This document shows positions 10,651-26,150 of a stretch of 46,524 nt of DNA, one piece after another. Numbering within the stretch: the first letter of the stretch is position 1; each line of letters starts with the position of its first letter. The stretch comes from Gammaproteobacteria bacterium (GTDB lineage: Bacteria > Pseudomonadota > Gammaproteobacteria > UBA4575): the NCBI GenBank assembly GCA_965221955.1, contig CBDCTA010000023.1, forward strand, positions 1 to 46,524, in the 5' to 3' direction. The notes under the pieces are model-generated. The model was not told the DNA's origin. It saw nothing but the letters and a program-made list of their open reading frames with translations, and made no database searches. The position numbers were made by a program, and so were the translations under genes.

Positions 10651-10800
10651 ACCATGGATGGCGGAAGTGCAGAAATTGCACGGCTGCAAGGATGCGGGAG
10701 GTAGAGTAACGCAGGAGCAGTTGCCGAGGAGCAAATTTCTGTCGGCCAATTAGTGAGTACATGGAAGTACGAATAAGAGCTACAACAAGGATGTTGTATC
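10651..10800 (+). other. Cluster of GGA-loop hairpins (nested small repeat or CsrA/RsmA-binding RNA-like element)
   Basis: Eight GGA motifs in about 150 bp, several in short stems: ccATGGAtgg, gcAAGGAtgc, gcAGGAgc, gtacATGGAagtac, acaacAAGGAtgttgt. Confidence 0.55.
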
Positions 10801-10805
10801 AGATT
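10753..10805 (+). repeat. Left terminal inverted repeat (53 bp)
   Basis: gtgagtacatggaagtacgaataagagctacaacaaggatgttgtatcagatt; 42/53 identical by manual alignment to the reverse complement of 23323-23375. Confidence 0.85.
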
Positions 10806-10823
10806 AAAGTCAGTCTAAATTAA

Positions 10824-10853
10824 AATGTCCGCTTTCGGCCAAAAGCGGTCATT
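10824..10853. repeat. 30-bp palindromic site 1 (form A)
   Basis: aatgtccgcttt cggcca aaagcggtcatt. Confidence 0.93.
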
Positions 10854-12313: not shown

Positions 12314-12338
12314 AACAATTATGAAATCTCTGCAATCC

Positions 12339-13216: not shown

Positions 13217-13246
13217 AATGTCCGTTTTCGGCCAATAGCGGATATT
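13217..13246. repeat. Site 5 (form A)
   Basis: aatgtccgtttt cggcca atagcggatatt. Confidence 0.9.
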
Positions 13247-13292
13247 CATGACAAATACACCTTCAAATAATATCCTGGAAGTTATGCATTGA

Positions 13293-14459: not shown

Positions 14460-14486
14460 TTCACTTTTTATTCTAACAAGTTTCTA

Positions 14487-14516
14487 AATGTCCGCTTAGG
14501 GCCGTTAGTGGTCATT
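14487..14516. repeat. Site 6 (form B)
   Basis: aatgtccgctta gggccg ttagtggtcatt. Confidence 0.88.
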
Positions 14517-14542
14517 TTGAAGCTTTGTTTTGAAGATTCCAA
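14514..14542 (-). promoter_or_regulatory. Putative sigma70-like linker promoter
   Basis: Minus strand TTGGAA-17 bp-CAAAAT. Confidence 0.4.
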
Positions 14543-14569
14543 CTTTGTTTCTCCTTAAATTATTTTAAT

Positions 14570-14599
14570 TATGTCCGCTTTCGGCCAATAGCGGACATT
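14570..14599. repeat. Site 7 (form A)
   Basis: tatgtccgcttt cggcca atagcggacatt. Confidence 0.95.
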
Positions 14600-14623
14600 T
14601 ATAAAACTAAACATTTATTCTTA

Positions 14624-14839
14624 TTATGGACGTTTTACACCATCACAATATTCATTAACTTTTGAAGTTAATCCTTGTATATCACATTTAGTTTCTAGAT
14701 TTTTTTCAAGTGAAATAATAAAAGGATACACAGTATCAATTTCATATTGAGGTGGACTACAGCCCATACACCAGTAATCATGTCTAAATTCAGCATTACC
14801 TTTATAAGATTCACGAAAATCGAAGTAGTTTTTGACTCC
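14624..14839 (-). pseudogene. 3' remnant of a cassette gene
   Basis: Open frame GVKNYFDFRESYKGNAEFRHDYWCMGCSPPQYEID...EYCDGVKRP* ending about 25 bp from site 7, blocked upstream by an in-frame TAA. Confidence 0.4.
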
Positions 14840-14972
14840 TTATATATACATACTAATACCTATGAATTACATCAGCTTTTTTATTCCAGTCAGTGTAAGT
14901 GGCCTCCCATCTTTTTCAATCGAATATGTAACTTCAGAGGTTGATAAAGATCAACTTTGACCTTACTTAAGG

Positions 14973-15776
14973 CTAACAGTTTGGCCTCTTGCCTTTTCCT
15001 CGTGCTTTTTTATAGGACAATAATGCCTGCGGCATGCGCGCATTTAAATCATTAATCCGAGATTGATTTGCTGGATGTGTGGACAGAAATTCAGGTGGTT
15101 GCTCACTACCTTGTTTAGACATGTTTTGCCACAATAAAACACTTTCACGAGGATCAAAACCTGCCATAGCCATATAGTCTAAACCCAAGATATCAGCTTC
15201 ACTTTCTTGCCCTCGCCCATAAGGCATCAATACGCCATATTGAGCACCTACACCAAGCAATCCCACTAAACGTTGTTTACCGGGTGTAGTTGCGCCTGCC
15301 ATAACTTCCACTAATTTTAAGCTTGCGCCTGTCGCATAAGCTGCAGATACACGTGCATTTGCATGTTCTGCAAGTACATGTGCTACCTCATGAGCAATAA
15401 CAGTAGCCAATTGATGTTGATTTTTTGTTACTTCCAATAATCCGGTATACACACCAATTTTGCCGCCCGGTAAAGCAAAAGCATTAACTGCCTTGTCTTG
15501 AAATACAATCACTTCCCATTGTGTATTTAGTCTTACTTCACGAGTAATTGCACTTGCTATACAACTCACATATCGATTTATTATTGCGTTTTTAGATTGT
15601 GGTGTTTTTTTCTTTAGATCTTCAAAAGCCGCAACGCCCATTTTATCCATTTGTTCTGCAGGGATAAGATGCAGTTGTGATCGACCAGTGGGCGAAGTCG
15701 CACAAGAATATATAGAAAGAATTAGTAAGAAAATTAATACAAGATATGTACTCAACGTACCTTTCATTACAAACAA
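14973..15776 (-). CDS. M48 family metallopeptidase (lipoprotein-like)
   Basis: Lipobox-like YSC, NAFALPGGKIGVYTGLL, AHEVAH (HExxH), ESEAD, FLSTHP. Confidence 0.92.
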   Translation of the reverse strand: MFVMKGTLSTYLVLIFLLILSIYSCATSPTGRSQLHLIPAEQMDKMGVAAFEDLKKKTPQSKNAIINRYVSCIASAITREVRLNTQWEVIVFQDKAVNAFALPGGKIGVYTGLLEVTKNQHQLATVIAHEVAHVLAEHANARVSAAYATGASLKLVEVMAGATTPGKQRLVGLLGVGAQYGVLMPYGRGQESEADILGLDYMAMAGFDPRESVLLWQNMSKQGSEQPPEFLSTHPANQSRINDLNARMPQALLSYKKARGKGKRPNC

Positions 15777-15777
15777 A

Positions 15778-16128
15778 TTAAGCGCTTAGTTTTTGAAATA
15801 CTTCGGCATGATATTTTAACCGTACATGCAGTTCTCTAGTTGGGTCCTCCAGGATATTACCAGTTAAAAACATTTCATCTTCATCATACTCACCTACTAA
15901 TTTGAGAATAAATTCCTCTAGTTTCCCAAATATTGGATTATATACACCATGATAGTGCTTTATATTAATAGTAGCATTGAAATTATTTCCCTTTAGATCA
16001 TAACTACCAACATAAAAATAGTTGTTATCACCCCCCAATATTTTCTTTTTCTCTAGAACGACAATTCCACCTCCTTCTGCGCTCATTTTTGAAACGAATT
16101 CTAGAGACCACAACTGCTCTAATGCCAT
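15778..16128 (-). CDS. GrlR-like small beta-barrel protein
   Basis: LWSLEF.S....GGGIVVL....ILGGD..YFY.GSY resembles the GrlR family pattern. Confidence 0.55.
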   Translation of the reverse strand: MALEQLWSLEFVSKMSAEGGGIVVLEKKKILGGDNNYFYVGSYDLKGNNFNATINIKHYHGVYNPIFGKLEEFILKLVGEYDEDEMFLTGNILEDPTRELHVRLKYHAEVFQKLSA

Positions 16129-16164
16129 TTTACAATTACCATGTTCACAATCATTGGTATCTAA

Positions 16165-16743
16165 CTAAGCGCTTTTAACTTCGATTGATCGCTTATTGCT
16201 TTTAGCCTCAATTGTTTTAGGTAGGGAAATATTTAGTACGCCCTTGGAATAGTTTGCATCAACTTTATTGTTATCCACACCGTTAGGCACACGAAATGTG
16301 CGTTGAAATGAGCCATAACTCCTTTCGCTTACGTGATAATTTTTCTTCTTTTCCTCACGCTCCGCTTTTTTCTCACCTTTTACAGTCAACGAATCATCAT
16401 TGAGAGACACTTCAATATCTTTTTCAGTCATGCCCGGCAATTCAACTGCTATCTCATAAGAATCATCACTCTCACTGACATCCACTCGTGGTGTTATGTC
16501 GAGTTTTGGCAACTTCAAATGACGTTCAAGATCTGCCATTGGATAGGTCCACCCTTTGCCAAATACTTTAGGTAAGCTTGGCCAATCTTCAGCAAAACGA
16601 TCAAAAATATTGTCCACTTCTTCACGCAATGTTACTAAAGGCGATATGACATCACCTTTTTTAGCAACAGACTTTCTAGATCTGGTCTTTCTCTTAGATG
16701 TTTTCTTCTTTTTTACAGGTACTTTTTTTGCTCTGCGCGCCAT
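16165..16743 (-). CDS. Small heat-shock protein (Hsp20/alpha-crystallin)
   Basis: PRVDVSE, VELPGM, LTVKGEK, ERSYGSFQRTF, A.YSKGVLNISLPK; start MARRAKK at 16743 with GGAG RBS. Confidence 0.92.
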   Translation of the reverse strand: MARRAKKVPVKKKKTSKRKTRSRKSVAKKGDVISPLVTLREEVDNIFDRFAEDWPSLPKVFGKGWTYPMADLERHLKLPKLDITPRVDVSESDDSYEIAVELPGMTEKDIEVSLNDDSLTVKGEKKAEREEKKKNYHVSERSYGSFQRTFRVPNGVDNNKVDANYSKGVLNISLPKTIEAKSNKRSIEVKSA

Positions 16744-16814
16744 TACTGCTTCTCCTTTTGATTGTTTGTAACTAATAATTTTGTCGTAATTTAGGGTTAC
16801 AGCATTGATCTTAG

Positions 16815-17060
16815 TCAAATTAATACATTGTTTTTCCATAAAACGAATAAATGACAATTTAATAACATTTCCATCATTGGCACGCACACCTTAGATATTT
16901 CTGATTTTTCATTTTCAGGTGGAGTAACACTAGGTGGAAGTGCGGGTATTACATTCATTGGAGATATTTCTACAGGTACAGAATCCGAGCTTGGTTGATC
17001 TGTGAAATAAACTTCCCCATTAGGCCTACATGTCTTTACAATTGATGCGCACAGGCGCAA
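16815..17060 (-). pseudogene. DUF4124-like fragment
   Basis: KTCRPNGEVYFTDQP followed by a Pro-rich linker; no signal peptide, TTG start, appears truncated. Confidence 0.4.
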
Positions 17061-17120
17061 TGACGCGACACACCGAGTGAACCTGTCTGAGAAAATCTTT
17101 AGTATTTTTGAAATTTTGAA

Positions 17121-17150
17121 AATGTCCGCTTTCGGCCAATAGCGGACATT
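17121..17150. repeat. Site 8 (form A, consensus)
   Basis: aatgtccgcttt cggcca atagcggacatt. Confidence 0.96.
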
Positions 17151-17596
17151 TACTTTTTCTGAATGTCATGTTCCAAGATAGCCAAAATGGCAGCTTCTAC
17201 TCTCGAGTCATCGTTCATATGAAATATATTATTCTTTTCTCTATGCTCAGTTATTTCAATGACACCATCAACATCATAGACATTATATGAAGGACGATCA
17301 TTCTTTCTTCCTAAGGACAAATCATCAAGATAATATGGACGTGTACCAATTCTTTGCCCGGTTACTTGATTAACTTTCTTATTGTTTAAATATATTTTGA
17401 ATACTGCTTCTGTGAGATAGTAATCAACTGATACGCTAATTTTATCGCGATCATTTTCTTCAGCTATTTCATCAAAGAACTTTGGTACTCGAGAATCATC
17501 AGCTAAATCGAAACTAGACTCGGGGAAACACCCAAATAGCGTAATAACCAAGAAGATTATTAAATATATTTTAATATTTAATTTTATATAAAACAC
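17150..17596 (-). CDS. Putative lipoprotein
   Basis: Hydrophobic N-terminus with LFGC lipobox; fills the interval between sites 8 and 9. Confidence 0.75.
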   Translation of the reverse strand: MFYIKLNIKIYLIIFLVITLFGCFPESSFDLADDSRVPKFFDEIAEENDRDKISVSVDYYLTEAVFKIYLNNKKVNQVTGQRIGTRPYYLDDLSLGRKNDRPSYNVYDVDGVIEITEHREKNNIFHMNDDSRVEAAILAILEHDIQKK

Positions 17597-17615
17597 TATA
17601 AGTATGACTTAAAGA

Positions 17616-17645
17616 AATGTCCGCTTTGGGTCGTTAGCAGTCATT
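17616..17645. repeat. Site 9 (form B, consensus)
   Basis: aatgtccgcttt gggtcg ttagcagtcatt. Confidence 0.96.
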
Positions 17646-18210
17646 CAATAGATTTATTGCCGTAATATGGCACTAAGCATTCATTTTTCATTGCATCTAA
17701 TGCATAGGAAAGGCCTTTGAGGCTGTAAGAGTACTCATGTAACCCGTTTTTATCACGATATCTAACATTTATAATTTTTGCATTTATCATTTCTTTAATG
17801 AGCCATCTTGATCTAACTGTGCTGATTAAATTTGGTGAGTAATCATTAACAAACCATTCTAAATTTAGTGGCGCTTGTTCATCTAGCTGAATAACCATCG
17901 GCACAACTTCTGGATCTATTAATTCAATAGGTTGGCCATTATTTAAATGTATATCATATCCTTCGTGTTGACTTATTCCTGAACTACAATAAATTTGCAG
18001 TATTGGGAGATTATTTGGATTCTTAAGTTGTGGTACTGCAATCATCGCCTGATTAGGGAAAGCAGGATTTAGCATTAATGACCAATCAGTTTGCGTCGCC
18101 CAATCATTTTCAAGACCAGGATCAACAGGTTGATTATTTTGATTAGTCTCAGTGCTTGCAGAACATTGGAATGCACACATAAAAAGAACAAAAAATAATA
18201 GTATTTTCAT
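17641..18210 (-). CDS. Secreted hypothetical protein
   Basis: Signal peptide MKILLFFVLFMCAFQCSA; TGA stop lies inside site 9. Confidence 0.78.
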   Translation of the reverse strand: MKILLFFVLFMCAFQCSASTETNQNNQPVDPGLENDWATQTDWSLMLNPAFPNQAMIAVPQLKNPNNLPILQIYCSSGISQHEGYDIHLNNGQPIELIDPEVVPMVIQLDEQAPLNLEWFVNDYSPNLISTVRSRWLIKEMINAKIINVRYRDKNGLHEYSYSLKGLSYALDAMKNECLVPYYGNKSIE

Positions 18211-18227
18211 ATATCCCTTAATTAATT

Positions 18228-18257
18228 TATGTCCGCTTTGGGTCGTTAGCAGTCATT
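18228..18257. repeat. Site 10 (form B)
   Basis: tatgtccgcttt gggtcg ttagcagtcatt. Confidence 0.95.
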
Positions 18258-18527
18258 CTAGACTTTGACTGTTTTTGCAATGTCATAGTATTTACCAGTC
18301 AAGTCCGTGCTCAATTTTCCAGTTTCAACCGCATTTAAAAATTCTTCTGGAAACTTATCTTTACCAAGAATAAATAATTGACTATTAATATCCTGCAAAT
18401 ATCTATCTCTAACTTTTTCAATTTTATTCTCATCATGCTCCATCCATGCGGCTTTTTTATCGTTATAGAAACATAATTCGTTGAGTAGCTTCATTAGCTT
18501 TCTTTTCTTGAAATAGCTAATAATCAT
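18258..18527 (-). CDS. Hypothetical protein
   Basis: 89-aa ORF exactly filling the interval between sites 10 and 11. Confidence 0.7.
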   Translation of the reverse strand: MIISYFKKRKLMKLLNELCFYNDKKAAWMEHDENKIEKVRDRYLQDINSQLFILGKDKFPEEFLNAVETGKLSTDLTGKYYDIAKTVKV

Positions 18528-18537
18528 TTATCAAAGG

Positions 18538-18567
18538 AATGTCCACTTTGGGTCGTTAGCAGTCATA
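18538..18567. repeat. Site 11 (form B)
   Basis: aatgtccacttt gggtcg ttagcagtcata. Confidence 0.92.
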
Positions 18568-18593
18568 TTAAGTTTATGTTTCATTGATTCCAA
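18565..18593 (-). promoter_or_regulatory. Putative sigma70-like linker promoter
   Basis: TTGGAA-17 bp-TAATAT. Confidence 0.45.
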
Positions 18594-18596
18594 CCT

Positions 18597-18626
18597 TATG
18601 TCTCCTTTCGGCAAATAGCAGTCATT
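18597..18626. repeat. Site 12 (degenerate form A)
   Basis: tatgtctccttt cggcaa atagcagtcatt. Confidence 0.82.
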
Positions 18627-19095
18627 CAGTAAGTGAAACTTTTTCACCATTTTTGAATAAGATATCAGTGCTTCCATCTCTATTTCGATCAAGCATTTCT
18701 AGTACGTCGCCTTGTTCATTCTCGACAACATTTACTATTTGCTCAAAATACCCATCCCCATCTATGTCACTAACAGAGATAGCATCACCATCTGAGAATC
18801 TCACTACGACATAGCTATCAGACAATGTAACCGAGTAGTCTTCATCGTAGATATAAAGCATTTTAGGGCCACCAGCTTTCTTTGGCCCATATAATTTCAA
18901 ATCGCTAATTTTGGTAGTGATCAAATCACTCAGTTGATAATCGAGGTGCATAGAACTTGAAAGCTCTTTTTTATTACGCTCGCTTAACTCTTGCCAGTTA
19001 ACATCATTTTGATTTTTACCATATATCCAGCCACCAACCGCAGATATACCTGAAACTGAAACTAAAACTAGTGCAATTATATTGATTGTTTTCAT
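18622..19095 (-). CDS. Membrane-anchored/secreted hypothetical protein with DxDGDG-type motifs
   Basis: N-terminal TM; DIDGDG and DRNRDG motifs; stop inside site 12. Confidence 0.72.
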   Translation of the reverse strand: MKTINIIALVLVSVSGISAVGGWIYGKNQNDVNWQELSERNKKELSSSMHLDYQLSDLITTKISDLKLYGPKKAGGPKMLYIYDEDYSVTLSDSYVVVRFSDGDAISVSDIDGDGYFEQIVNVVENEQGDVLEMLDRNRDGSTDILFKNGEKVSLTE

Positions 19096-19104
19096 TTGAT
19101 CTGC

Positions 19105-19134
19105 GATGTCCGCTTTGGGTCGTAAGCAGACATT
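19105..19134. repeat. Site 13 (form B)
   Basis: gatgtccgcttt gggtcg taagcagacatt. Confidence 0.93.
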
Positions 19135-19153
19135 TTAGAACAATATGTATGAA

Positions 19154-19284
19154 ATTTTCAGAAGCGTCTGAAACTTCTCACGCCTAATTAACGCAGTAAC
19201 TTACGATGCTTTCCTACCTCACACTGTGACATTAGGATACTGCAATGAATAACAATGAACTTCATTGTGACACATTTTGGTCAC
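19154..19284 (+). repeat. 131-bp imperfect direct repeat, copy 1
   Basis: attttcaga..taattaacgcagtaacttacgatgctttcctac..acttcattgtgacacattttggtcac; aligns to 20460-20590. Confidence 0.75.
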
Positions 19285-19319
19285 TGCAACCCATTGTCTA
19301 AGAACACTTCACTCAAAAG

Positions 19320-20312
19320 TTAATAGCCATTATTTAACATCCAGTTATTCAATGGGAGTACCAATACTTTTAAATGCTCGTGATTGACTGTTTTAGCAAG
19401 TACTTTTTCAGGATAAGGATAGACGGCCCATGCACGATCAAAGTACTCTTGAGCTTCTTCTTTGTTTGGTGAACTTTCTAAAAGTTTCGCCCACTTAACA
19501 AACAAAGCACAACCAAGTGTAAAACGTGCACCACCATAGTTCATGCGTGTTAATGCTTCCTCAGCATATTCAATTGCTCCATCAATGTCTTGGTAAGTAA
19601 AAAGTAAAAAATTTGCATAATTTCCCCATATCCATGCAGAGTTAGGATTATTCTCAAGCTGATTTCTATAAGCTGTATCAGTACTATCATAATCACCCAT
19701 CTTCCAATATGTGCTTGTAATACCTTCTAAAGCTCCTGCATAAGCTTTTTCATTATTAGTCCCTTTTTCAATAACATTTTGGTAGCGTTCTAATGCTTCA
19801 GAATATTTCCCTTGTATATCTAAAAGCCGTGCCCAGTTAATTTCCAGCCAAGGTGATTCTGTGCCAATACGCTCTGCACTCGTTAGTGATAAGTCTGCAT
19901 AACCAAACTCTTTCATCGCAATATAAACGGATGCTAATAAAACATATGCGTCTGCGTAATGAGGCTCGATTTCTAATGCCCTTTTGACAGATTTTTCAGC
20001 AGCGAGCAGGCTCTCTTCTCTATAATTATCATAATTAATATAGCCACTCATTAAGTGGAGCCTTCCATACTCTCTATGTACAGGCGCAAATTGCTCGTCT
20101 TTAGCAAGAATTACTTCGAGCATAATATACGCCTTTTGGAGATCCTCTCTCCTTCCAGTGTAAGAATTTATAAGTATTCGCGCAGCATCATAGCTTTCAA
20201 ATAATTCAGGACTTTTTTCTCGATATTTCTGATCGATTGGGGAATTCCAAAATTCAGCACTTGCTGAAGTGACGCATAGAATTAATAGTAATACTAAGAA
20301 TTTACCAGCCAT
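19320..20312 (-). CDS. Secreted tetratricopeptide-repeat protein
   Basis: Signal peptide; repeated A...Y..ALE..P..A.A patterns. Confidence 0.82.
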   Translation of the reverse strand: MAGKFLVLLLILCVTSASAEFWNSPIDQKYREKSPELFESYDAARILINSYTGRREDLQKAYIMLEVILAKDEQFAPVHREYGRLHLMSGYINYDNYREESLLAAEKSVKRALEIEPHYADAYVLLASVYIAMKEFGYADLSLTSAERIGTESPWLEINWARLLDIQGKYSEALERYQNVIEKGTNNEKAYAGALEGITSTYWKMGDYDSTDTAYRNQLENNPNSAWIWGNYANFLLFTYQDIDGAIEYAEEALTRMNYGGARFTLGCALFVKWAKLLESSPNKEEAQEYFDRAWAVYPYPEKVLAKTVNHEHLKVLVLPLNNWMLNNGY

Positions 20313-20459
20313 AAATACTCCAACCTAAATTAGGCTACTAGAAGAATAATAAGTCCAACTCATAAAGATTTAAAGATTTGTATAAAAAAGTTTAAAAATA
20401 CGACTGGTGGATGAATTACAGATAAGCGTTTTCAAAGTTTATATAAACGAGATACGAGG

Positions 20460-20590
20460 ATTTTCAGATTTTTCTAGAAATACTCACATTTAATTAACAC
20501 AGTGACTTACGATGTTTCCCTACTCACAACTGAGTCAATAACGCACAATAATGAGTATGAGTGTACTTCAGTGTGACACAATTTTGGCAC
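20460..20590 (+). repeat. 131-bp imperfect direct repeat, copy 2
   Basis: attttcaga..taattaacacagtgacttacgatgtttccctac..acttcagtgtgacacaattttggcac. Confidence 0.75.
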
Positions 20591-20597
20591 AACTTTA

Positions 20598-20627
20598 AAT
20601 ATCCGCTTTCGGCCAATAGTGGTCATT
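20598..20627. repeat. Site 14 (form A)
   Basis: aatatccgcttt cggcca atagtggtcatt. Confidence 0.9.
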
Positions 20628-20631
20628 ACGT

Positions 20632-21009
20632 TTATGCGAGTTTCTTTGCTACAAATGGAGACAATAATAATGACATGCCTAACAATAAATACTTGAATAT
20701 TGGTGTACCAATTAACTCAAAGCCTTTATGCCCAATAAAAGGTAACAACAGAACACTACCAAGCATCCAGATAGCAAAAGCTAACGTGAAACAAGCTAAT
20801 ATAATCTTAAACACTCTAAAATTACCATTCTTCTTGTTTGAGCCTTTGCTAAGCAATACACCAATTATAGCTATGCCCATCAAAACAATGCCAAATGTAG
20901 AATATAATAAGACATTTACTTGTTCTGGATATTTAAAATTTAGGAACGAAATCATTAACAGATAAGAAACTGCCAATGCAGCAATAAATATCAGATTTCT
21001 TTTATTCAT
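20632..21009 (-). CDS. Membrane protein (about 4 TM)
   Basis: Hydrophobic ORF filling the interval between sites 14 and 15. Confidence 0.75.
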   Translation of the reverse strand: MNKRNLIFIAALAVSYLLMISFLNFKYPEQVNVLLYSTFGIVLMGIAIIGVLLSKGSNKKNGNFRVFKIILACFTLAFAIWMLGSVLLLPFIGHKGFELIGTPIFKYLLLGMSLLLSPFVAKKLA

Positions 21010-21020
21010 TACAGAAACAT

Positions 21021-21050
21021 AATGTCCGCTTTGGGTCGTTAGCAGTCATT
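21021..21050. repeat. Site 15 (form B, consensus)
   Basis: aatgtccgcttt gggtcg ttagcagtcatt. Confidence 0.96.
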
Positions 21051-21076
21051 TTAAATTTGTAGCTCATTGAATCCAA
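21048..21076 (-). promoter_or_regulatory. Putative sigma70-like linker promoter
   Basis: TTGGAT-17 bp-TAAAAT; last 3 nt of the -10 lie in site 15. Confidence 0.5.
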
Positions 21077-21093
21077 CCATATTTGTTTTGAAT

Positions 21094-21123
21094 TATGTCT
21101 GCTTTCGGCCAATAGCGGACGTG
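21094..21123. repeat. Site 16 (form A)
   Basis: tatgtctgcttt cggcca atagcggacgtg. Confidence 0.9.
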
Positions 21124-21154
21124 TAATACTCTCCTTTAATTGGCACTATTAATT

Positions 21155-21397
21155 TTACAAATTTTTGTTTTTTCGTGAACCCTCAAACAAAATAAGTAAT
21201 GCCATAGCCGCCCAAATAATGGTTAATAAGATAAATGCTCCACGGTTAGAATTGAAGCATGCTATATCATCACTTCTCCAATTGGGTAAGCTAATGCAAA
21301 AATCATTGTAATCGTCATAGGAAAGAAAAATAACAAAAACGTACACTGCTACAGCGAAAAGAAATCCTATAATATTTCTTTTCTTAGGAATCTTCAT
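21155..21397 (-). CDS. Small membrane protein (2 TM, loop with two Cys)
   Basis: 80-aa ORF between sites 16 and 17. Confidence 0.7.
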   Translation of the reverse strand: MKIPKKRNIIGFLFAVAVYVFVIFLSYDDYNDFCISLPNWRSDDIACFNSNRGAFILLTIIWAAMALLILFEGSRKNKNL

Positions 21398-21415
21398 AAT
21401 CTATAAATCTTTCAA

Positions 21416-21445
21416 AATGTCCGCTTTGGGTCGATAGCAGTCATT
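21416..21445. repeat. Site 17 (form B)
   Basis: aatgtccgcttt gggtcg atagcagtcatt. Confidence 0.95.
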
Positions 21446-21471
21446 TTGAACGTTTGTTTTGAAGTTTCCAA
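21443..21471 (-). promoter_or_regulatory. Putative sigma70-like linker promoter
   Basis: TTGGAA-17 bp-CAAAAT. Confidence 0.4.
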
Positions 21472-21498
21472 CCTGACTTCCCCTAAATTGATCTTAAT

Positions 21499-21528
21499 TT
21501 TGTCCGCTTTCGGCCAACAGCGGACATT
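21499..21528. repeat. Site 18 (form A)
   Basis: tttgtccgcttt cggcca acagcggacatt. Confidence 0.92.
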
Positions 21529-21534
21529 CATGCG

Positions 21535-21894
21535 TCATTGATCAGATGTGTTTGCAGGACGAAACTCTTCAAAAATCTGCTTGTAGTGTTTGGCCTTATC
21601 TTCGTTTATCTCAAAATACCAACAACCTTTTAAATAACAAAGCGCGAGTACATGAGCAGCCCTATAGTTATTTAAATCTCCTGCTTTAATCAGCCATTCA
21701 CGTGCTTCATCCATCTCATCTATTGTAGGAGGTGTTTGGCTATCTACACGTTCTGCAACACCTAACCACAAATTATACATCGCTTCTGAATTGCCTTGAT
21801 TAGCAAGATTAATTAAATGCTTTGTATCTTTATCATCATGAGAATTACTCGCTAATGGAATACAAATTAAAATTAGAAATAAAATAAATTTCAT
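21535..21894 (-). CDS. Secreted Sel1-like repeat protein
   Basis: Signal peptide; LANQGNSEAMYNL, AREWLIKAG, LALCYLKG, KAKHY. Confidence 0.75.
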   Translation of the reverse strand: MKFILFLILICIPLASNSHDDKDTKHLINLANQGNSEAMYNLWLGVAERVDSQTPPTIDEMDEAREWLIKAGDLNNYRAAHVLALCYLKGCWYFEINEDKAKHYKQIFEEFRPANTSDQ

Positions 21895-21914
21895 CTAACT
21901 AATCTAAAATTACT

Positions 21915-21944
21915 AATGTCCGCTTTGGGTCGTAAGTGGTCATT
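21915..21944. repeat. Site 19 (form B)
   Basis: aatgtccgcttt gggtcg taagtggtcatt. Confidence 0.93.
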
Positions 21945-21970
21945 TTAAGTTTGAAGTTTATTGATTCCAA
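21942..21970 (-). promoter_or_regulatory. Putative sigma70-like linker promoter
   Basis: TTGGAA-17 bp-TAAAAT. Confidence 0.5.
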
Positions 21971-21987
21971 CACTTTGCACCCCTAAA

Positions 21988-22017
21988 TTTGTCTGCTTTC
22001 GGCCAATAGCGGACATT
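21988..22017. repeat. Site 20 (form A)
   Basis: tttgtctgcttt cggcca atagcggacatt. Confidence 0.92.
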
Positions 22018-22022
22018 CACAG

Positions 22023-22487
22023 CTAGAGGACAATATCTTTCTCCATCACGGATACTGAATGACCTTGCCACTCGGTACGTTCTCGCACAACCCAATTAAG
22101 TTTAGAATAAAATTCTTCTGAATCGGGCGTGTAAAGAAATAATTTGCTCACTCCTAATCGTGCTGCTTTATCCTCAATAGCAAAAACAAGCTTTTTACCA
22201 ACCCCCTTTTTTCTATGCTTTGTATCTACATACAAACCCGCCAACCATGGACTTAGGTTTGGGCGTGATCCAAGATCATTTGTCTTTAAAGCAATCATCC
22301 CTATTGCTTTATCGTTTTCAAATGCTACTAAACAAAGTGGTATTTTCTCTTTATTGGATCTCTCCAGCATTAATTGCTCGACATCTGAAAGTGTTCTTTC
22401 AGGATGAAGATTTGACCATTCGTTATATGACCAGTTAGCAAGAGTTGGAATGACGTTTTTATGATCTGCTAAGTACTCTATTTCCAT
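22023..22487 (-). CDS. GNAT family N-acetyltransferase
   Basis: PWLAGLYVDTKHRKKGVGKKL (acetyl-CoA motif A), LFLYT...FYSKLNW. Confidence 0.9.
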   Translation of the reverse strand: MEIEYLADHKNVIPTLANWSYNEWSNLHPERTLSDVEQLMLERSNKEKIPLCLVAFENDKAIGMIALKTNDLGSRPNLSPWLAGLYVDTKHRKKGVGKKLVFAIEDKAARLGVSKLFLYTPDSEEFYSKLNWVVRERTEWQGHSVSVMEKDIVL

Positions 22488-22530
22488 TGCTTGTTATTGA
22501 AACAATTATATGTGTAAAAACTGTCAGTTG

Positions 22531-22560
22531 AATGTCCGCTTTGGGTCGTTAGCGGTCATT
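22531..22560. repeat. Site 21 (form B)
   Basis: aatgtccgcttt gggtcg ttagcggtcatt. Confidence 0.95.
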
Positions 22561-22612
22561 AAACTATGTTGTTTTGAGATTTCCAACCTGATTTCCCTTT
22601 AATGAATTAAAT

Positions 22613-22642
22613 TATGTCAGCTTTCAGTCAATAGCGGACATT
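22613..22642. repeat. Site 22 (form A variant)
   Basis: tatgtcagcttt cagtca atagcggacatt. Confidence 0.85.
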
Positions 22643-22653
22643 ATTGGATTACT

Positions 22654-22863
22654 CTAGTCGCTAATTTTTTGCTTCTTCCTAAAATACCATTCAGCAACAA
22701 ACCAGATAGCAACTCCAATAATTACTAAATAAAGATTATCGAGAAATCCCGCATAAGTTCTTACAGATTCACAGCCAGAATCATCGCATACAATTTCACT
22801 AGATTTAATGAATACTCCTATACAGATAAGAATAAATATTAGTAATCTGCTTAGAACTTTCAT
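22654..22863 (-). CDS. Small membrane protein (2 TM, CDDSGC loop)
   Basis: 69-aa ORF filling the interval between sites 22 and 23. Confidence 0.68.
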   Translation of the reverse strand: MKVLSRLLIFILICIGVFIKSSEIVCDDSGCESVRTYAGFLDNLYLVIIGVAIWFVAEWYFRKKQKISD

Positions 22864-22880
22864 TACTTTAAAGTTTGTTC

Positions 22881-22910
22881 AATGTCCGCCTTGGGTCGTT
22901 AGCAGACATT
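22881..22910. repeat. Site 23 (form B)
   Basis: aatgtccgcctt gggtcg ttagcagacatt. Confidence 0.93.
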
Positions 22911-22936
22911 TTAAGTTTATAGATCATTGAATCCAA
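22908..22936 (-). promoter_or_regulatory. Putative sigma70-like linker promoter
   Basis: TTGGAT-17 bp-TAAAAT. Confidence 0.5.
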
Positions 22937-22953
22937 CACATTGTGTCCATTGT

Positions 22954-22983
22954 TTTATCCGCTTACGACCATAAGCGGACATC
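22954..22983. repeat. Site 24 (A orientation, hybrid core)
   Basis: tttatccgctta cgacca taagcggacatc. Confidence 0.85.
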
Positions 22984-22994
22984 TGTTATTAGTT

Positions 22995-23264
22995 TTATTG
23001 ATTGAAAATCTTATAGCAAACATAGGCTGCTATTAACCATATATAGAAAGCTAATAAAGAGACGTTATAAATCTTACGTGCTTTTTGGCCTGTTTCATTT
23101 AATGCATCGGTTTTAAAAATTGGCAAAATATTAATGACAGCTAAACCTTTTTGTTCATCGACATTATTTAAAACAGTCAGGTAAGCACTGAAATATGAAA
23201 CAGCGATAATTATTAATGAAATAGCAAATAGTCCTATTAATATCGTTGAAATTAAATCAATCAT
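22995..23264 (-). CDS. Small membrane protein (2 TM)
   Basis: 89-aa ORF filling the interval between sites 24 and 25. Confidence 0.68.
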   Translation of the reverse strand: MIDLISTILIGLFAISLIIIAVSYFSAYLTVLNNVDEQKGLAVINILPIFKTDALNETGQKARKIYNVSLLAFYIWLIAAYVCYKIFNQ

Positions 23265-23274
23265 AGATTAGATA

Positions 23275-23304
23275 AATGTCCGCTTTGGGTCGATAGCAGT
23301 CATT
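23275..23304. repeat. Site 25 (form B)
   Basis: aatgtccgcttt gggtcg atagcagtcatt. Confidence 0.95.
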
Positions 23305-23322
23305 CTATTAAAAGAAATATTG

Positions 23323-23375
23323 AATCTGAAGCAACCTCCTTGTTACATCTCATGTTCGCCCATCCATGTACTCAC
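23323..23375 (-). repeat. Right terminal inverted repeat (53 bp)
   Basis: Reverse complement gtgagtacatggatgggcgaacatgagatgtaacaaggaggttgcttcagatt matches 10753-10805. Confidence 0.85.
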
Positions 23376-23398
23376 ACTTTGGGTCGTTAGCTATCATT
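23369..23398. repeat. Site 26 (form B, left arm truncated by the terminal repeat)
   Basis: (tactca)cacttt gggtcg ttagctatcatt, followed by a linker giving TTGGTG-17 bp-TAAAAT on the minus strand. Confidence 0.75.
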
Positions 23399-23501
23399 TT
23401 ATAAAAGTAACTTAAATCCACCAACATACCTATTTTAATTCCACCTAACTTTAATTTGTTCGCGCCATCTAGACGCGACTCATATTCGTATATCCTTATA
23501 C

Positions 23502-23846
23502 TCACGCACTATCCAAGCGCTTACCAAGTAACAAAGCCCTAGGGTCTCCATTCGTCTGATAAGTCGCATACAAAATATAGAGAAACCCGAACATTCCACC
23601 TAGAAAGATACTTAAAAAACCAAATATATAACTCTTAGGAGTAAAGCCTTCACGCCATGCGATCCAAGTTGCTAACAAAAATAGATGAATTAAAAAATCA
23701 ACATTGAATTGTGAACGCCAGTTTAGATCAAGAATGTCGCCAAAAAATACGCTTGGCCAATTGACACCATTTGCTGTTAATACAATGAATGTAATTACAA
23801 AGATAACCACTGATGAAAATATTAAAAACAATCTAAATAACGCCAT
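23502..23846 (-). CDS. Small integral membrane protein
   Basis: 114 aa, about 3 TM, directly downstream of lptG. Confidence 0.75.
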   Translation of the reverse strand: MALFRLFLIFSSVVIFVITFIVLTANGVNWPSVFFGDILDLNWRSQFNVDFLIHLFLLATWIAWREGFTPKSYIFGFLSIFLGGMFGFLYILYATYQTNGDPRALLLGKRLDSA

Positions 23847-23879
23847 GAAATTTTCCTGATACAGACAATTTAAATAAGA

Positions 23880-24989
23880 TTACGCCATCCTCTTTATCGC
23901 AATCGTGGCAATCGTAATGACAATCAAGGTTGGTAAAAATGCCCCCAATATCGGCGGTATGTCGTATACTGCACTAGAATTTGCTAACACTTTACTTGAT
24001 ATATTAAATGCAAGTGCAATGACTGCGCCTAAGATAATTCGTTGCCCTAACCCTCCTGTACGCGCTGATCGAAACACAAATGGTAATGCAATCAACAACA
24101 TTGCTATACCAGACAATGGAATTGCGAAACGATTGTAGTATGCAAGCTCATAACGTTGCGCATCAAGTTCATTACCTTCTAAATAATTAATATATTTTTT
24201 AAGCTTTGCAGCCCCCATATATTCCGGTTTAACAGTGATCACATCAAATAGGTCAGGTGAAACCAATCTTTCCCAATGTTCTTCTTCCGCCGCAACGGTT
24301 TCCACGCCATTTTGGGAAATTAGACTATGTTTAATATTTGATAATTTCCAAACTTCATTTTCATAAACCGCTTGTTTGATGAAACTTGCACGTTTTAATT
24401 TGTATTGTTCATCTAATTCATACACCCAAATATCACGCATGCGATAATCAGGATAAATTTCTTGTGCATTCACATAACGCTTACCATCACGTACCCAAAC
24501 ACCGTATTTTGAACGTAATGATATTTTTTTAAGGTCACTGACTTGCTCGCCATCACTATTAGTATGTCTTACCTGGCTCTTACTTAAGCTGTTCACATAA
24601 CCTTGTGATGTGGGAACCACCATTTCTCCTACCCAAACACTCAACGCTACAAGCACAATTCCAACTTTTAGCGCAGACCAGATGATTCTCATTTTGCTGA
24701 TACCAGCAGAACGTAAAGCAACTAACTCGCTTTTGGCTGCAAGCTGCCCTAGCCCGATGAGCGCACCCAACAACAGAGCAGTGGGCATAAATTCATAAAG
24801 ACGTTGAGGCATGCCATAAAACAATCTCAACAACACATGGTTAAATGTAAAGCCACGATCATCTACAGATTCCACATCATCAATAAAATCGATAATGGAA
24901 TCAATTGAAAACAACACGAGTAACGCAAACAAGGTACCGATGAACACGGTTCTTCCTAAATAACGATCATAGTGCTTGAACAAAATCAC
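23880..24989 (-). CDS. lptG: LPS export ABC transporter permease LptG
   Basis: P.ALLLGALIGLGQLAAKSELVALRSAGIS; YjgP/Q family, second of the pair. Confidence 0.92.
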   Translation of the reverse strand: MILFKHYDRYLGRTVFIGTLFALLVLFSIDSIIDFIDDVESVDDRGFTFNHVLLRLFYGMPQRLYEFMPTALLLGALIGLGQLAAKSELVALRSAGISKMRIIWSALKVGIVLVALSVWVGEMVVPTSQGYVNSLSKSQVRHTNSDGEQVSDLKKISLRSKYGVWVRDGKRYVNAQEIYPDYRMRDIWVYELDEQYKLKRASFIKQAVYENEVWKLSNIKHSLISQNGVETVAAEEEHWERLVSPDLFDVITVKPEYMGAAKLKKYINYLEGNELDAQRYELAYYNRFAIPLSGIAMLLIALPFVFRSARTGGLGQRIILGAVIALAFNISSKVLANSSAVYDIPPILGAFLPTLIVITIATIAIKRMA

Positions 24990-24990
24990 A

Positions 24991-26058
24991 CTAAGCTCCT
25001 AATCGTTGTCGCATCGTTAAAATAATAATTAAGACCAACATGCCAATATGCACTAGGAACATTCCAGGTATGGCAGGGAATTTTCCATCTGCTACCCATG
25101 CTTCCATCAAGATAAGTAAATTTGAATAAATTAAATAAATAACAATAGCAATTCCGAGATTGGCAAACCGTCCTTGTCTTGGACTAGACACACTAAGCGG
25201 AAAGGCCAGCAACACCACTAATATGGCTGCAATGGGTACAGAGATACGCCATTGAAATTCTGCCACATCACTTAATGCATTAGATTTCAGTAATGCAGTA
25301 GTTGATTTAAATTCCGGATCTTGATGATCTAGCTTAAGATCAAATTCAGGTATTCGCACCGCATGTTGATCGAACGTTAATACTGTAAAACCCCCTTCAC
25401 CTGGCATACCTTGATAACGCTGACCTTTCTTTAAGATTAGCGACTCACCTCCCAACTCCGATAAATTTTTCTGTTCCGCAAATTTTGCAGTTTCGATCGC
25501 TACTTTCCCTTCTCTACGATCTGAAATAAAAACGTTCTTCACTTCACCTGAATCTTTATCGGCCTCTTCAACGAACACCACCCAATTCCCTTGATTAGAT
25601 TCAATAAATTGTCCAGGTGTTAAACCATGGATATCGGTTAAGCCTTTCGCTCTGAGTTTTATTTTTTCGATTTGCTGGGCCGTCCAAGGTGCAGAAAAAA
25701 TCGACAGGAAAAATAACAATGTGACAATTGGAATAACCACCAAACTGGCGTAACGCAACAACGAAAATGAACCGATGCCGCTAGCCTTAATTGCGTAAAT
25801 TTCACTGTCACGATAATAACGCCCTAGCACTAGCATGATGGTGAGCAGTAATGCGAAGGGAACTAACAAAATCGCAGATTTTAATATTCCCAAACCCAGC
25901 AAAGACATCACCACATCTGACGGTAACTTTCCGTCCATAACTTTAGAAAGTAGGCTGACAAAAGATTTACCCACAATTACTACAACTAAAACCAAGCCCA
26001 CAGCGGCGAAAGTTTGAGCAAGTTCTTTAGAGAAATAGCGATTGAGTGTGGAAAACAT
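24991..26058 (-). CDS. lptF: LPS export ABC transporter permease LptF
   Basis: RYFSKEL, LGRYYRDSEIYAI, AEFQWRISVP, PRQGRF; divergent from pepA. Confidence 0.92.
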   Translation of the reverse strand: MFSTLNRYFSKELAQTFAAVGLVLVVVIVGKSFVSLLSKVMDGKLPSDVVMSLLGLGILKSAILLVPFALLLTIMLVLGRYYRDSEIYAIKASGIGSFSLLRYASLVVIPIVTLLFFLSIFSAPWTAQQIEKIKLRAKGLTDIHGLTPGQFIESNQGNWVVFVEEADKDSGEVKNVFISDRREGKVAIETAKFAEQKNLSELGGESLILKKGQRYQGMPGEGGFTVLTFDQHAVRIPEFDLKLDHQDPEFKSTTALLKSNALSDVAEFQWRISVPIAAILVVLLAFPLSVSSPRQGRFANLGIAIVIYLIYSNLLILMEAWVADGKFPAIPGMFLVHIGMLVLIIILTMRQRLGA

Positions 26059-26150
26059 CTAAGCTTTTTGCTGGAACAGATCAGATACAGTTACATTTAT
26101 CGCAATATTAGCAATAATGCAGCAAACACAGACAGTAAATTGAGGAAAAA

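Follow-up and report, generated by a model that had tools for sequence, protein, structure and literature searches.

The window, the whole 46,524-nt stretch of gammaproteobacterial DNA analyzed here, carries between lptG and xerD a ~13-kb stretch of small genes, each tightly boxed in by copies of a conserved 28-nt palindrome. The copies fall into two types, A and B, which occur alone or joined by a spacer as composites, and E is a further repeat at the array ends. C14 is a contig of the same assembly with another haplotype of the locus. Coordinates, strands and features are as follows.

9193-10110, minus: xerD, housekeeping (TIGR02225, 402 bits against a cut-off of 330), then dsbC
10202-10630, plus: RDD family protein, directly after lptG in relatives
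10740-10752, plus: truncated A-type half site (..CGGCCAATTA), immediately preceding the terminal E element
10753-10824, plus: E element, inverted terminal copy pointing into the array
10825-23303, minus: cassette array, 24 sites in one orientation, all long ORFs on the minus strand
10825-10852, plus: A site, the array's last in gene sense; extra 1.06-kb unit here in C14
10906-11397, minus: bacterial-like globin (PF01152), first gene of a three-gene unit
11366-11683, minus: DUF2314 protein
11780-12112, minus: 110 aa, no Pfam or NCBIfam family
12285-12312, plus: A site, boundary between sequence shared and not shared with C14
12339-12614, minus: 91 aa, no family
12700-12727, plus: degenerate B-type site, 5 mismatches, abutted by the OsmC stop codon
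12728-13162, minus: OsmC-like protein
13218-13245, plus: A site
13293-14459, minus: Na+/H+ exchanger family
14488-14598, plus: composite of B 14488-14515, spacer and A 14571-14598, 111 nt, one long imperfect hairpin
14973-15776, minus: M48 peptidase, in a multi-gene unit with 15778-16128 and 16165-16887
15778-16128, minus: 116 aa, no family
16165-16887, minus: HSP20 family
17122-17149, plus: A site, stop codon 17150-17152 abutting
17150-17596, minus: 148 aa, sub-threshold DUF6694 match only
17617-17644, plus: solo B site, gives the TGA stop to ORF 17641-18210
17641-18210, minus: 189 aa, sub-threshold VasI match only; distant homologues in genomes G009, G025 and G026
18229-18256, plus: solo B site, stop of ORF 18258-18527 1 nt off
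18258-18527, minus: 89 aa, no family
18539-18625, plus: short composite, 87 nt, B 18539-18566 and degenerate A 18598-18625, the latter providing the TGA stop of ORF 18622-19095
18622-19095, minus: 157 aa, no family over cut-off
19106-19133, plus: B site
19320-20312, minus: TPR repeat protein, unit flanks long (286 and 186 nt)
20599-20626, plus: A site
20632-21009, minus: 125 aa, no family over cut-off
21022-21122, plus: composite B-spacer-A, 101 nt
21155-21397, minus: 80 aa, no family
21417-21527, plus: composite B-spacer-A, 111 nt, ssDNA fold with A paired to B
21535-21894, minus: 119 aa, no family
21916-22016, plus: composite B-spacer-A, 101 nt, spacer with TTGGAA-N17-TAAAAT on the minus strand (21970-21942)
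22023-22487, minus: GNAT acetyltransferase, 79% identical homologue with site remnants in genome G002
22532-22641, plus: composite B-spacer-A, 110 nt
22654-22863, minus: 69 aa, no family
22882-22982, plus: composite B-spacer-A, 101 nt, degenerate A at 22955
22995-23264, minus: 89 aa; look-alike solo unit at G000:C29:103085-103430, 89 aa (sequences compared by eye)
23276-23303, plus: B site, the array's first in gene sense, boundary of C14-shared sequence
23304-23376, minus: E element, short form, TTCAGA-N17-TAGAAT just before the first B site
23377-23397, minus: truncated B site, first 21 nt in gene sense, ..CCCAAAG joined to TGTGAG of E
23398-23505, minus: E element, long form, promoter-like spacer; first bases hold the stop of ORF 23502-23846
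23880-24989, minus: lptG

Sites, spacers and E elements

A degenerate 28-nt pattern matched 26 times in the window, four A sites being scored on both strands, and had no match in any of 100 shuffles. With up to six mismatches allowed we found 24 sites, 12 A and 12 B, that span 10825-23303 between lptG and RDD/xerD and are all in the plus orientation. The whole genome contains 177 sites per 2.7 Mb, grouped into 48 clusters that are spread over 18 of 29 contigs, and 159 of them lie in clusters of at least two (manual count); the orientation bias of clusters towards a replication strand is modest (31/46). In gene sense the B site reads ATGACTGCTAACGACCCAAAGCGGACAT and is positioned 10-50 nt 5' of the gene start, while the A site reads ATGTCCGCTATTGGCCGAAAGCGGACAT and lies at or on the gene's stop. 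Out of the 90 same-orientation site-to-site intervals of 150-3500 nt in the whole genome, 78 have their longest ATG ORF antisense to the sites. The composites come in discrete lengths of 87, ~100 and ~111 nt, with A before B in gene sense in 31 of 33. Sites are conserved above the genes that they enclose, paralogous units being 77% identical and their sites matching at 26-27/28 positions. Terminal inverted repeats and target duplications are absent at unit level. Stems of single sites display no compensatory change, so covariation gives no support to base-pairing of the single site.

The E element at 10753-10824 starts with GTGAGT, contains two hairpins and ends with CAGATTAAAG. Truncated sites are fused to E at ..CCCAAAG/TGTGAGC and ..GGCCAAT(T)AG/TGAGC in ~14 of ~40 E copies (manual count). 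Arrays occupy intergenic landing places that are bracketed by inverted copies of this structured 75-110 nt element.

Packing of the genes and properties of the composite sites

An earlier note on this DNA had described ORFs trimmed to the sites with some stop codons supplied by them, and the coordinates bear this out. The stops at 12728-12730 and 17150-17152 abut the sites at 12700-12727 and 17122-17149, and that at 18258-18260 lies 1 nt from the B site 18229-18256. The stop 17641-17643 is located within the B site 17617-17644, where it is the TGA of the site's ATGAC on the gene strand, and 18622-18624 is likewise the TGA of the site at 18598-18625. The nine start codons cited in the same note are indeed close to a B site, although the gaps run from 10 to 21 nt and the 9-20 given there was off by one: 20 nt for 17596, 18 for 18210, 11 for 18527, 10 for 19095, 12 for 21009, 19 for 21397, 21 for 21894, 18 for 22863 and 11 for 23264. 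Site-to-start and site-to-stop distances measured over the whole genome show the same tight packing. In 51 of the 78 antisense-ORF intervals the ORF covers 80% or more of the length, and these 51 single-gene units have a median start gap of 21 nt (0-50 nt in 44) and a median stop gap of 5 nt. In 22 of the 51 the stop overlaps or abuts the site (-11 to +1), 11 using the site's own TGA. The evidence supports genes and sites having arrived together, as had been proposed, and not repeats landing between resident genes, but packaging as ORF-only units does not extend to all: 14599-17121 holds 3-4 genes and 10853-12284 holds three, and about a third of units are not tight single genes (51/78 are).

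Start regions were also said to leave no room for a native promoter and often to have no clear Shine-Dalgarno sequence. The second point is correct but nothing special, because the signal is weak throughout the genome: an SD-like tetramer precedes 6/51 cassette ORFs versus 204/935 long ORFs in a crude test that takes the first ATG as start. The first point is not supported, as the repeat unit itself brings a sigma-70-like module, TTGGAA-N17-TAAAAT, just upstream of B with the -10 hexamer ending on B's first two bases. With a match at 8 or more of its 12 positions as threshold, this promoter-like module was detected at 47/75 B sites versus 9/74 A sites and 90/5000 random places, and by eye ahead of 7 of the 9 cited genes. 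The A'-spacer-B' units (87-111 nt) are predicted to fold like attC as ssDNA. In 24 of the 33 composites, A and B are paired at 12 or more positions in the minimum-energy fold. A median energy of -14.8 kcal/mol compares with -8.3 for two local hairpins; for the composite 21417-21527 the minimum is -18.7 kcal/mol (z -3.3). Both the promoter and the fold counts exaggerate the support, since repeat copies are not independent of one another.

Strain-to-strain turnover and joint movement of genes and sites

In six relatives that lie beyond the genus or at its edge (G019, G006, G002, G001, G051 and G044) lptG is directly followed by RDD-xerD-dsbC, and it adjoins xerD in three more (G003-G005). Consequently the whole block is an insertion. 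Members of the genus (G020, G008, G009, G016 and the window) have this gap filled by 1.75-13 kb of differing content. Haplotype C14 differs from the window only between sites: it is 99-99.5% identical over 1-10848, 10824-12315 and 23272-27587, contains one additional 1.06-kb unit, bounded by two A sites, and carries 1.5 kb of unrelated units in place of the window's 11 kb. All breakpoints are at sites. The loop of the A site at 12285 is inverted in C14, and the two haplotype junctions disagree on a single crossover point. Array content turns over between strains.

The check on cargo homologues proposed in the earlier note, whether they are flanked by the same sites in other contexts, came out positive. 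A homologue of the GNAT cassette with 79% identity occurs in only one of 55 other family genomes (G002, a different genus), where its stop is abutted by an A-like site and a truncated B site is located upstream of it. In G009, A and B sites flank the distant homologue of the 189-aa gene. Together with a paralogue inside the array C29:609666-610784, these cases show genes moving along with their sites. Many other Proteobacteria also have genes bracketed by this palindrome, with zero-mismatch sites in genera whose LptG is 67-70% identical, and in soil Alphaproteobacteria it occurs in pairs or triplets 45-46 nt apart with gene-sized gaps between them. The near-identity of the 28-mer across Proteobacteria classes suggests a sequence-specific protein partner.

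Candidate mechanisms and comparison with known systems

We looked for integron integrase, Y1, IS110, TnpB, RT and DDE genes and found none. The best match to the IntI model TIGR02249 is XerD, with 83 bits against a cut-off of 265, and the attC consensus was not found at the sites; lacking both, the region is by definition not an integron. The recombinases of the own genome (96.6% complete) are only XerC, XerD, one P4-like integrase, which is present in only 5/56 family genomes, and one large serine recombinase. In G008, a complete genome rich in sites, XerC and XerD are accompanied by only one further integrase, and site-rich genomes share no tyrosine recombinases except XerC and XerD.

We give an even chance to the region being an integron-like mobile gene cassette array made of different parts and served by a postulated trans-acting recombinase. 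A unit would mostly be one small minus-strand gene with B before its start and A at its stop, and between genes A, a ~45-nt spacer and B would form one imperfect inverted repeat of 87-111 nt, which as ssDNA may adopt a long bulged hairpin in the position of attC. Units would be excised and inserted by site-specific recombination within the sites, by a recombinase acting in trans and probably with crossover at the inner edge of the conserved GCGGACAT arm. The spacer would carry a promoter with its -10 hexamer ending on B's first bases; each unit would be transcribed singly, with the B hairpin at the RNA 5' end. In favour of this reading are the orderly layout of the sites, the inserted nature of the block, turnover at the sites, genes moving with them, the strong site conservation, the attC-like predicted fold, the recurrent junctions with E and the promoter-like module. 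Against it count the failure to find a recombinase that could be named, the dissimilarity between the sites and the dif candidate of this genome, the lack of covariation in single-site stems, the disagreement of the two haplotype junctions and the units that are not tight single genes; circular or excised forms were not seen.

Among the closest known systems are sedentary chromosomal integrons and CALINs, the latter being clusters of attC sites that lack an integrase. Shared with these are arrays in which small genes, mostly single and of mixed or unknown function, are closely packed in a common orientation, each followed by an imperfect inverted repeat of ~60-140 nt with a bulged-hairpin fold. 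Stop codons overlapped by sites, strain-to-strain turnover at sites and a promoter-bearing platform where the array begins are common to both as well. The attC consensus is RYYYAAC...GTTRRRY, whereas the site ends here are ATGTCCGC...GCGGACAT and IntI was not found. Each half is a 28-nt palindrome that also occurs alone, and conservation across classes concerns site sequence and not structure alone. Most units bring their own promoter-like module, and a genome holds dozens of small arrays and solo units where an integron would have a single platform.

The main rival, possible though on balance doubtful, is that the sites are REP/BIME-like extragenic repeats, structural or RNA-level elements gathering in variable islands. 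They would then act as terminators, mRNA stabilisers or promoter carriers, and cassettes would come and go through ordinary homologous recombination among the many 28-110 nt repeats, or through slippage, DNA uptake being one possible occasion. This reading makes a dedicated recombinase, searched for and not found, unnecessary, and recombination between repeats would equally be expected to place breakpoints at sites. Like REPs, BIMEs and REPINs, the sites are imperfect palindromes of 20-40 nt that occur outside genes in high copy number (177 per 2.7 Mb), may have RNA-level roles and form mosaics with other short modules, here spacers and E. Two inverted-like units with a linker look like a BIME, in which REPs alternate in orientation according to a passage of PMC2817692. 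Clustering of 159 of the 177 sites and near-identity of the 28-mer across classes nevertheless speak against it. So do the strict polarity towards genes and the distinct site types at 5' and 3' ends, 0-20 nt from start and stop codons and bounding swappable genes. B sites in particular occupy 5' leaders, 10-20 nt away from the start codon, where REPs are not usually found. Read by eye, the sites have neither the GTAG nor the CGTC tag of REPs (described in a part of PMC3733652). The first acquisition of sites by a gene is left unexplained as well. Finally, Y1/RAYT genes (Y1_Tnp) are absent from the own genome and from the complete site-rich genomes G006, G008 and G020, and present in 8/56 family genomes with no relation to site number. 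This absence also counts against the sites delimiting non-autonomous single-strand transposons of the IS200/IS605 kind, with B as left-end and A as right-end hairpin and a Y1 HUH transposase in trans. Two related subterminal hairpins in direct orientation around cargo would fit such elements, as would units free of terminal inverted repeats and target duplications. The search for TnpB was negative, however, and the replication-strand bias is only modest, which makes this origin highly improbable.

Scarcely more credible is the reading of the 28-nt sites as Xer sites (11-6-11, two 11-nt inverted arms around 6 nt) with units moved by the housekeeping XerC/XerD encoded beside the array, either as a chromosomal counterpart of Acinetobacter plasmid modules or on ssDNA hairpin substrates like those of CTX-type phages. 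XerC/XerD are the sole tyrosine recombinases common to site-rich genomes, and the pdif modules, as far as an excerpt of PMC7399989 describes them, likewise consist of single genes or small sets between 28-nt Xer sites in varied contexts. The arms of A and B, however, match only 4-5/11 positions each (manual count) of the canonical dif candidate of the own genome (C4:59807, ACTTCGCATAATATATATTATGTTAAAT), and site-free relatives have XerC and XerD too. All sites within an array share one orientation, whereas those of the Acinetobacter modules alternate, and the units here are chromosomal, in long arrays, with composite double sites and a spacer. Although xerD lies 700 nt from the array end, its closeness looks accidental, given the ancestral lptG-RDD-xerD adjacency and the arrays elsewhere.

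Neisseria dRS3/RS mosaics and Correia/ERIC-type MITEs are intergenic short-repeat mosaics at variable spots with no genes between the repeats. They resemble the present arrays in combining short inverted repeats with repeat units at variable intergenic spots, but the repeats described here box in ORFs.

Organization of the array and packing of genes against the sites

Between 10.8 and 23.3 kb the window carries 24 copies of a 28-nt imperfect palindrome in uniform orientation, 12 of type A reading ATGTCCGCTTTCGGCCAATAGCGGACAT on the plus strand and 12 of type B reading ATGTCCGCTTTGGGTCGTTAGCAGTCAT. A degenerate pattern gave 26 matches in the window (four A sites being counted on both strands) versus none in 100 shuffles. 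Every long open reading frame between the sites lies on the minus strand. In gene sense, with sites read on that strand denoted A' and B', the order is leader, B', 10-50 nt, ATG to stop codon, A', a spacer of about 45 nt, B' and the next gene, and a final A' closes the array. Seven such A'-spacer-B' composites occur within the window. The whole source assembly (G000, 2.69 Mb) contains 177 sites with up to 6 mismatches, distributed in 48 clusters over 18 of its 29 contigs. Unit ends read ATGTCCGC and GCGGACAT, and the site consensus starts with ATGTCCGC and finishes with GCGGACAT; the arm beside the following gene is nearly invariant and the other arm is variable. A link between site orientation and local GC skew was discarded: gene sense coincides with the G-rich strand in 31 of 46 clusters, a share that the ordinary bias of genes towards one strand would produce as well.

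The cargo with recognizable families consists of a globin, a DUF2314 protein, OsmC, a Na+/H+ exchanger, an M48 peptidase with HSP20, a TPR protein and a GNAT protein, and about 10 small proteins belong to no family; this is the mix usual for accessory cassettes. The G+C content of the array (0.34-0.38) is slightly below that of the flanks (0.39-0.45). At the gathering score Rfam gave no family match in the window or in 9 loci of other taxa, and the only match on 20500-23700 was at chance level (E 3.2). A 131-nt direct repeat, 70% identical between 19154-19284 and 20460-20590, lies just inside the sites flanking the TPR gene and is neither a normal spacer nor a copy of E, the structured repeat described below.

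The earlier note had proposed that the genes are trimmed to the sites, some of which supply the stop codon. Inspection of the stop codons bears this out: those at 12728 and 17150 abut sites, the one at 18258 is 1 nt off, and those at 17641 and 18622 are the TGA within the ATGAC of the site. The nine start codons said to lie 9-20 bp from a B site are indeed close to it, at a measured gap of 10-21 nt. Measuring the same distances over G000 showed that tight packing is a property of the whole genome. Of 90 intervals between sites of the same orientation, 78 have a longest ATG-initiated frame that is antisense to these sites, and 51 of these 78 are single-gene units, with a median gap of 21 nt at the start and 5 nt at the stop; in 22 of the 51 the stop codon overlaps or abuts the site, and in 11 the TGA of the site itself is used. 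The description of the units as ORF-only does not fit all of them, as three or four genes are found in some. Shine-Dalgarno sequences are weak as had been noticed, although this is not special to the array, the whole genome being poor in them.

In contrast, the statement that the units leave no room for a native promoter was not supported at the level of sequence. A conserved GTTGGAA is found just upstream of B', followed 17 bases on by a TAAAAT-like hexamer whose final two bases are the first two of the B' site. Of 75 B' sites, 39 are preceded by GTTGG at -32 to -21; the corresponding numbers are 1 among 74 A' sites and 47 among 5000 random places. A match of at least 8/12 to the sigma-70 consensus in this register was counted 47 times at the B' sites, 9 times at the A' sites and 90 times at the random places. 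Since these counts come from copies of one repeat family, which are not independent, and from sequence rather than RNA, we infer only that a unit-borne promoter may lie upstream of B'. The site-anchored scan alone is informative here; a generic promoter scan of 10500-23900 revealed no overall enrichment (35 found, 51.5 expected), and terminator-like sites in the same interval numbered 8 for 7 expected.

Gene content of the lptG locus in relatives and in a second haplotype

The array separates lptG from the genes for an RDD protein and XerD. In six relatives (G019, G006, G002, G001, G051 and G044) lptG is directly followed by RDD, xerD and dsbC, and in G003-G005 xerD comes directly after lptG. 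Within the genus of the window the same gap measures 1.75 kb (G016), 2.9 kb (G008), 5.4 kb (G009), 6.1 kb (G020) and 13 kb (window), and it is filled with co-directional genes that differ from one genome to another. A second version of the locus in the same assembly, haplotype C14, shares 99-99.5% identity with the window over 1-10848, 10824-12315 and 23272-27587. Between two A sites it carries an additional 1.06-kb unit, and 1.5 kb of unrelated units take the place of 11 kb of the window; a site is located at each of the breakpoints. The two versions (window 1-27587 and G000:C14:1-19227) stem either from a duplication or from a mixture of strains in the sample, the contamination of the assembly being given as 4.3%.

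We then looked for cargo homologues flanked by the same sites elsewhere, and found them. Of 55 other family genomes, only one, belonging to a different genus, contains a homologue of the GNAT gene (79% identical); there an A-like site abuts the stop codon, and a truncated B site and the same 44-nt leader lie upstream; a GNAT paralogue is inside another array of G000. Distant homologues of a 189-aa gene are located between A and B sites in G009, near two B sites in G026, and with no site nearby in G025. Together with the lptG gap and the C14 haplotype, these contexts support the central proposal of the earlier note, namely that genes were packaged with their sites.

Contigs from four public sequencing runs (X1-X4) were also compared with the window. 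They show 9 joints, all ending at sites, which may be paths of the assembly graph induced by the repeats because their shorter sides are merely 24-31 nt long. Among the loose ends listed, 16 of 24 are at site edges, as contigs broken at repeats would also give. A loose end of X3 at 21053 was rejected as an alternative arrangement, for it matches the leader of a paralogous locus (C29:103085). The array is partly without cover in X2-X4, to which we attach no evidential weight. Contigs of X1, X2 and X4 depart from the window at 12621 and 16153, with the same foreign sequence each time; both points fall between genes of multi-gene units and at no recognized site.

Composite fold, E element and the search for an enzyme

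The 33 composites of G000 range from 87 to 122 nt in length. For 24 of these, the single-stranded DNA fold of lowest energy has at least 12 positions of A' paired with B', interrupted by single-base bulges and enclosing a central loop of about 50 nt, and the median fold energy is -14.8 kcal/mol versus -8.3 for two separate hairpins (z -3.3 for an example from the window). By our own count the A' consensus can form base pairs with that of B' at 21 of its 28 positions. In its predicted fold the composite has the architecture of an attC site, being an imperfect hairpin with bulges whose length is within the 57-141 nt of attC.

E begins with GTGAGC, contains two hairpins, ends with CAGATTAAAGTTAGG and is 75-110 nt long. 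G000 has about 40 copies, almost every one of which faces a site no more than 100 nt away, and they bracket arrays and solo units as inverted pairs; those of the window are at 23304-23505 and 10753..10824. Among 33 distinct copies the hairpins display compensatory changes, one pair being A-T in 11, G-C in 8 and C-G in 6, and another pair A-T in 16 and T-A in 10. At C29:575437-575640 one E, one degenerate site and an inverted E lie together in what looks like an empty landing place. Truncated sites are fused to about 14 E copies with a fixed break (..CCCAAAG|TGTGAGC and ..GGCCAAT(T)AG|TGAGC), which corresponds to the inner edge of the invariant GCGGACAT arm. The stop codon of a predicted 114-aa membrane protein without family (23502-23846) is within the first bases of E; among 14 lptG loci compared, this protein is found only in the two haplotypes of this genome.

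How the units move can be read in two ways. We see about an even chance that cassettes are recombined site-specifically by an enzyme acting in trans. The sites would then be substrates of a site-specific recombinase, as the attC-like fold, the fixed breaks of the E fusions and the one near-invariant arm suggest; crossover would take place near AG|CGGACAT, and a unit would consist of CGGACAT, the gene, the A' site with its spacer, and up to the first 21 nt of B'. Some features call for caution, however: we found no stem covariation in single sites (B pairs 4-25 and 6-23 are mostly mismatched), and the loop of one A site is inverted between the two haplotypes. As for the crossover point, only the junctions of truncated sites with E point to AG|CGGACAT; paralogous units have both entire sites in common, the haplotype junctions are mutually inconsistent, and at the extra C14 unit the positions that discriminate would place the crossover closer to the other arm.

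The other reading, that REP-like repeats have provided for homologous exchange, we consider less likely. The array has copy number, size (palindromes of 20-40 nt, here 28 nt) and mosaic build in common with REP/BIME elements, but no RAYT (Y1 transposase) gene accompanies its sites, and these are strictly polar and bound genes. REP sequences carry a GTAG or CGTC tag at one end according to one study (PMC3733652), and a tag of the kind described there is missing from the ends of our sites. Br-REP1 and Br-REP2 of Bradyrhizobium (PMC5082802) are unlike this palindrome in sequence.

For site-specific recombination a candidate enzyme was sought in G000 (96.6% complete). No protein exceeded the cut-off of the integron integrase model (TIGR02249, 265 bits), the best score being 83 bits, in XerD; the recombinase adjoining the array itself scores as XerD (TIGR02225, 402 bits), and xerD is an ancestral neighbour of the locus. 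The genome has no match to Y1 transposase (PF01797, 0 matches), IS110, TnpB, reverse transcriptase (RVT_1), rve or DDE_Tnp_1; neither the Y1 HUH transposase of an IS200/IS605-type element nor the TnpB that often goes with it was found. Across the family, 8 of 56 genomes encode a Y1 transposase, and the site-rich G006, G008 and G020 are not among them. The recombinases of G000 are XerC, XerD, one P4-like integrase and one large serine recombinase, and the complete, site-rich G008 has XerC, XerD and one other integrase. The P4-like integrase (C29:2613-3908) was rejected as the cassette enzyme because it does not track the sites, being found in only 5 of 56 family genomes. A canonical dif-like sequence with 4 mismatches to the search motif, G000:C4:59807-59834, probably serves to resolve chromosome dimers in this organism. 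The A and B sites are unlike it, their arms agreeing with it at only 4-5 of 11 positions by our own count. Arm sequence and site orientation also set the array apart from the Acinetobacter modules flanked by Xer sites.

Distribution of the palindrome and comparison with integrons

Matches to the pattern were found in 33 of 56 family genomes, a single genome having as many as about 230. They cover 8 of 11 genera and, in the genus of the window, every one of its 14 other species; a reversed version of the pattern, run as a control, had zero matches in family genomes. Scanning one genome per species led to the identification of at least 118 loci, 102 of those listed having 50% G+C or more. Most of the 118 listed are from soil Alphaproteobacteria (Pseudolabrys, Xanthobacteraceae, Sphingomonas, Caulobacteraceae), and others from Woeseiaceae, Frateuria, Onishia and Nitrospinaceae. 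At high-G+C loci the palindromes are grouped in twos or threes at a spacing of 45-46 nt, with gene-sized gaps between the groups, and 8 kb can hold as many as 20 of them; in soil Alphaproteobacteria, as at L027 (OY969102.1), groups of the same period are separated by 0.3-3 kb, and a third loop type (..TTTACCCCC..) stands between the two known here. Of 5426 complete E. coli genomes, 353 have a close, unannotated variant of the palindrome in a lambdoid prophage, flanked by a DUF977 gene and two hypothetical genes (L169, ATCC 11775 chromosome, 2722105-2722132), and a close variant is also located, unannotated, between genes on plasmids of Pantoea (52 records) and Klebsiella (28 records), as at L170 and L171. 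Searches of openly available full texts, also with site sub-strings, found no description of the palindrome or of palindrome-bounded cassettes.

To our knowledge, integrons alone are well understood among systems in which single genes are stored and shuffled as cassettes. The core consensus of attC, R''/R', is RYYYAAC / GTTRRRY. Integron cassettes are co-oriented and mostly promoterless single-ORF units; those of the array are co-oriented and, as the earlier note remarked, tightly packed, but a promoter-like module stands at 47 of the 75 B sites. The integron label needs correction: the array works like a sedentary integron or CALIN, yet IntI is lacking, and the sites are without GTT at their 3' edge and do not follow the R''/R' core consensus. 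It looks like a parallel solution to integrons: the sites are different, each genome offers many small landing places, promoters would be built in and no integrase is linked to the units, all this in genomes otherwise without insertion sequences. Possibly, although we would not bet on it, this is a second kind of integron across Proteobacteria, in which single genes would lie between conserved 28-nt palindromes, palindrome pairs would act as attC-like sites, each unit would have its own promoter, and the recombinase, housekeeping or unrecognized, would be encoded elsewhere, outside cassette-linked families; its range would then include Gammaproteobacteria of the sea and Alphaproteobacteria of soil, with relics left in prophages and plasmids of enterobacteria. 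Should recombination truly act on the sites, marine and soil Proteobacteria would have a hidden gene flux that IntegronFinder and finders of insertion sequences and transposons miss, the recombinase would be new and tool-like, with a target of 28 nt, and the trimmed units would form a natural data set on how ORFs acquire sites. If the repeats merely give homology, they are a clear case of REP-like elements organizing an accessory genome.

Reading of the frames near the palindromes identified one ORF family, a putative ABC-type substrate-binding protein, in 25 of the 118 loci listed. IS110-family elements target REP and attC hairpins. By the same reading, an ORF for a putative IS110-like transposase is located within 8 kb of the palindromes in 5 of the 118 loci listed, for instance L062.
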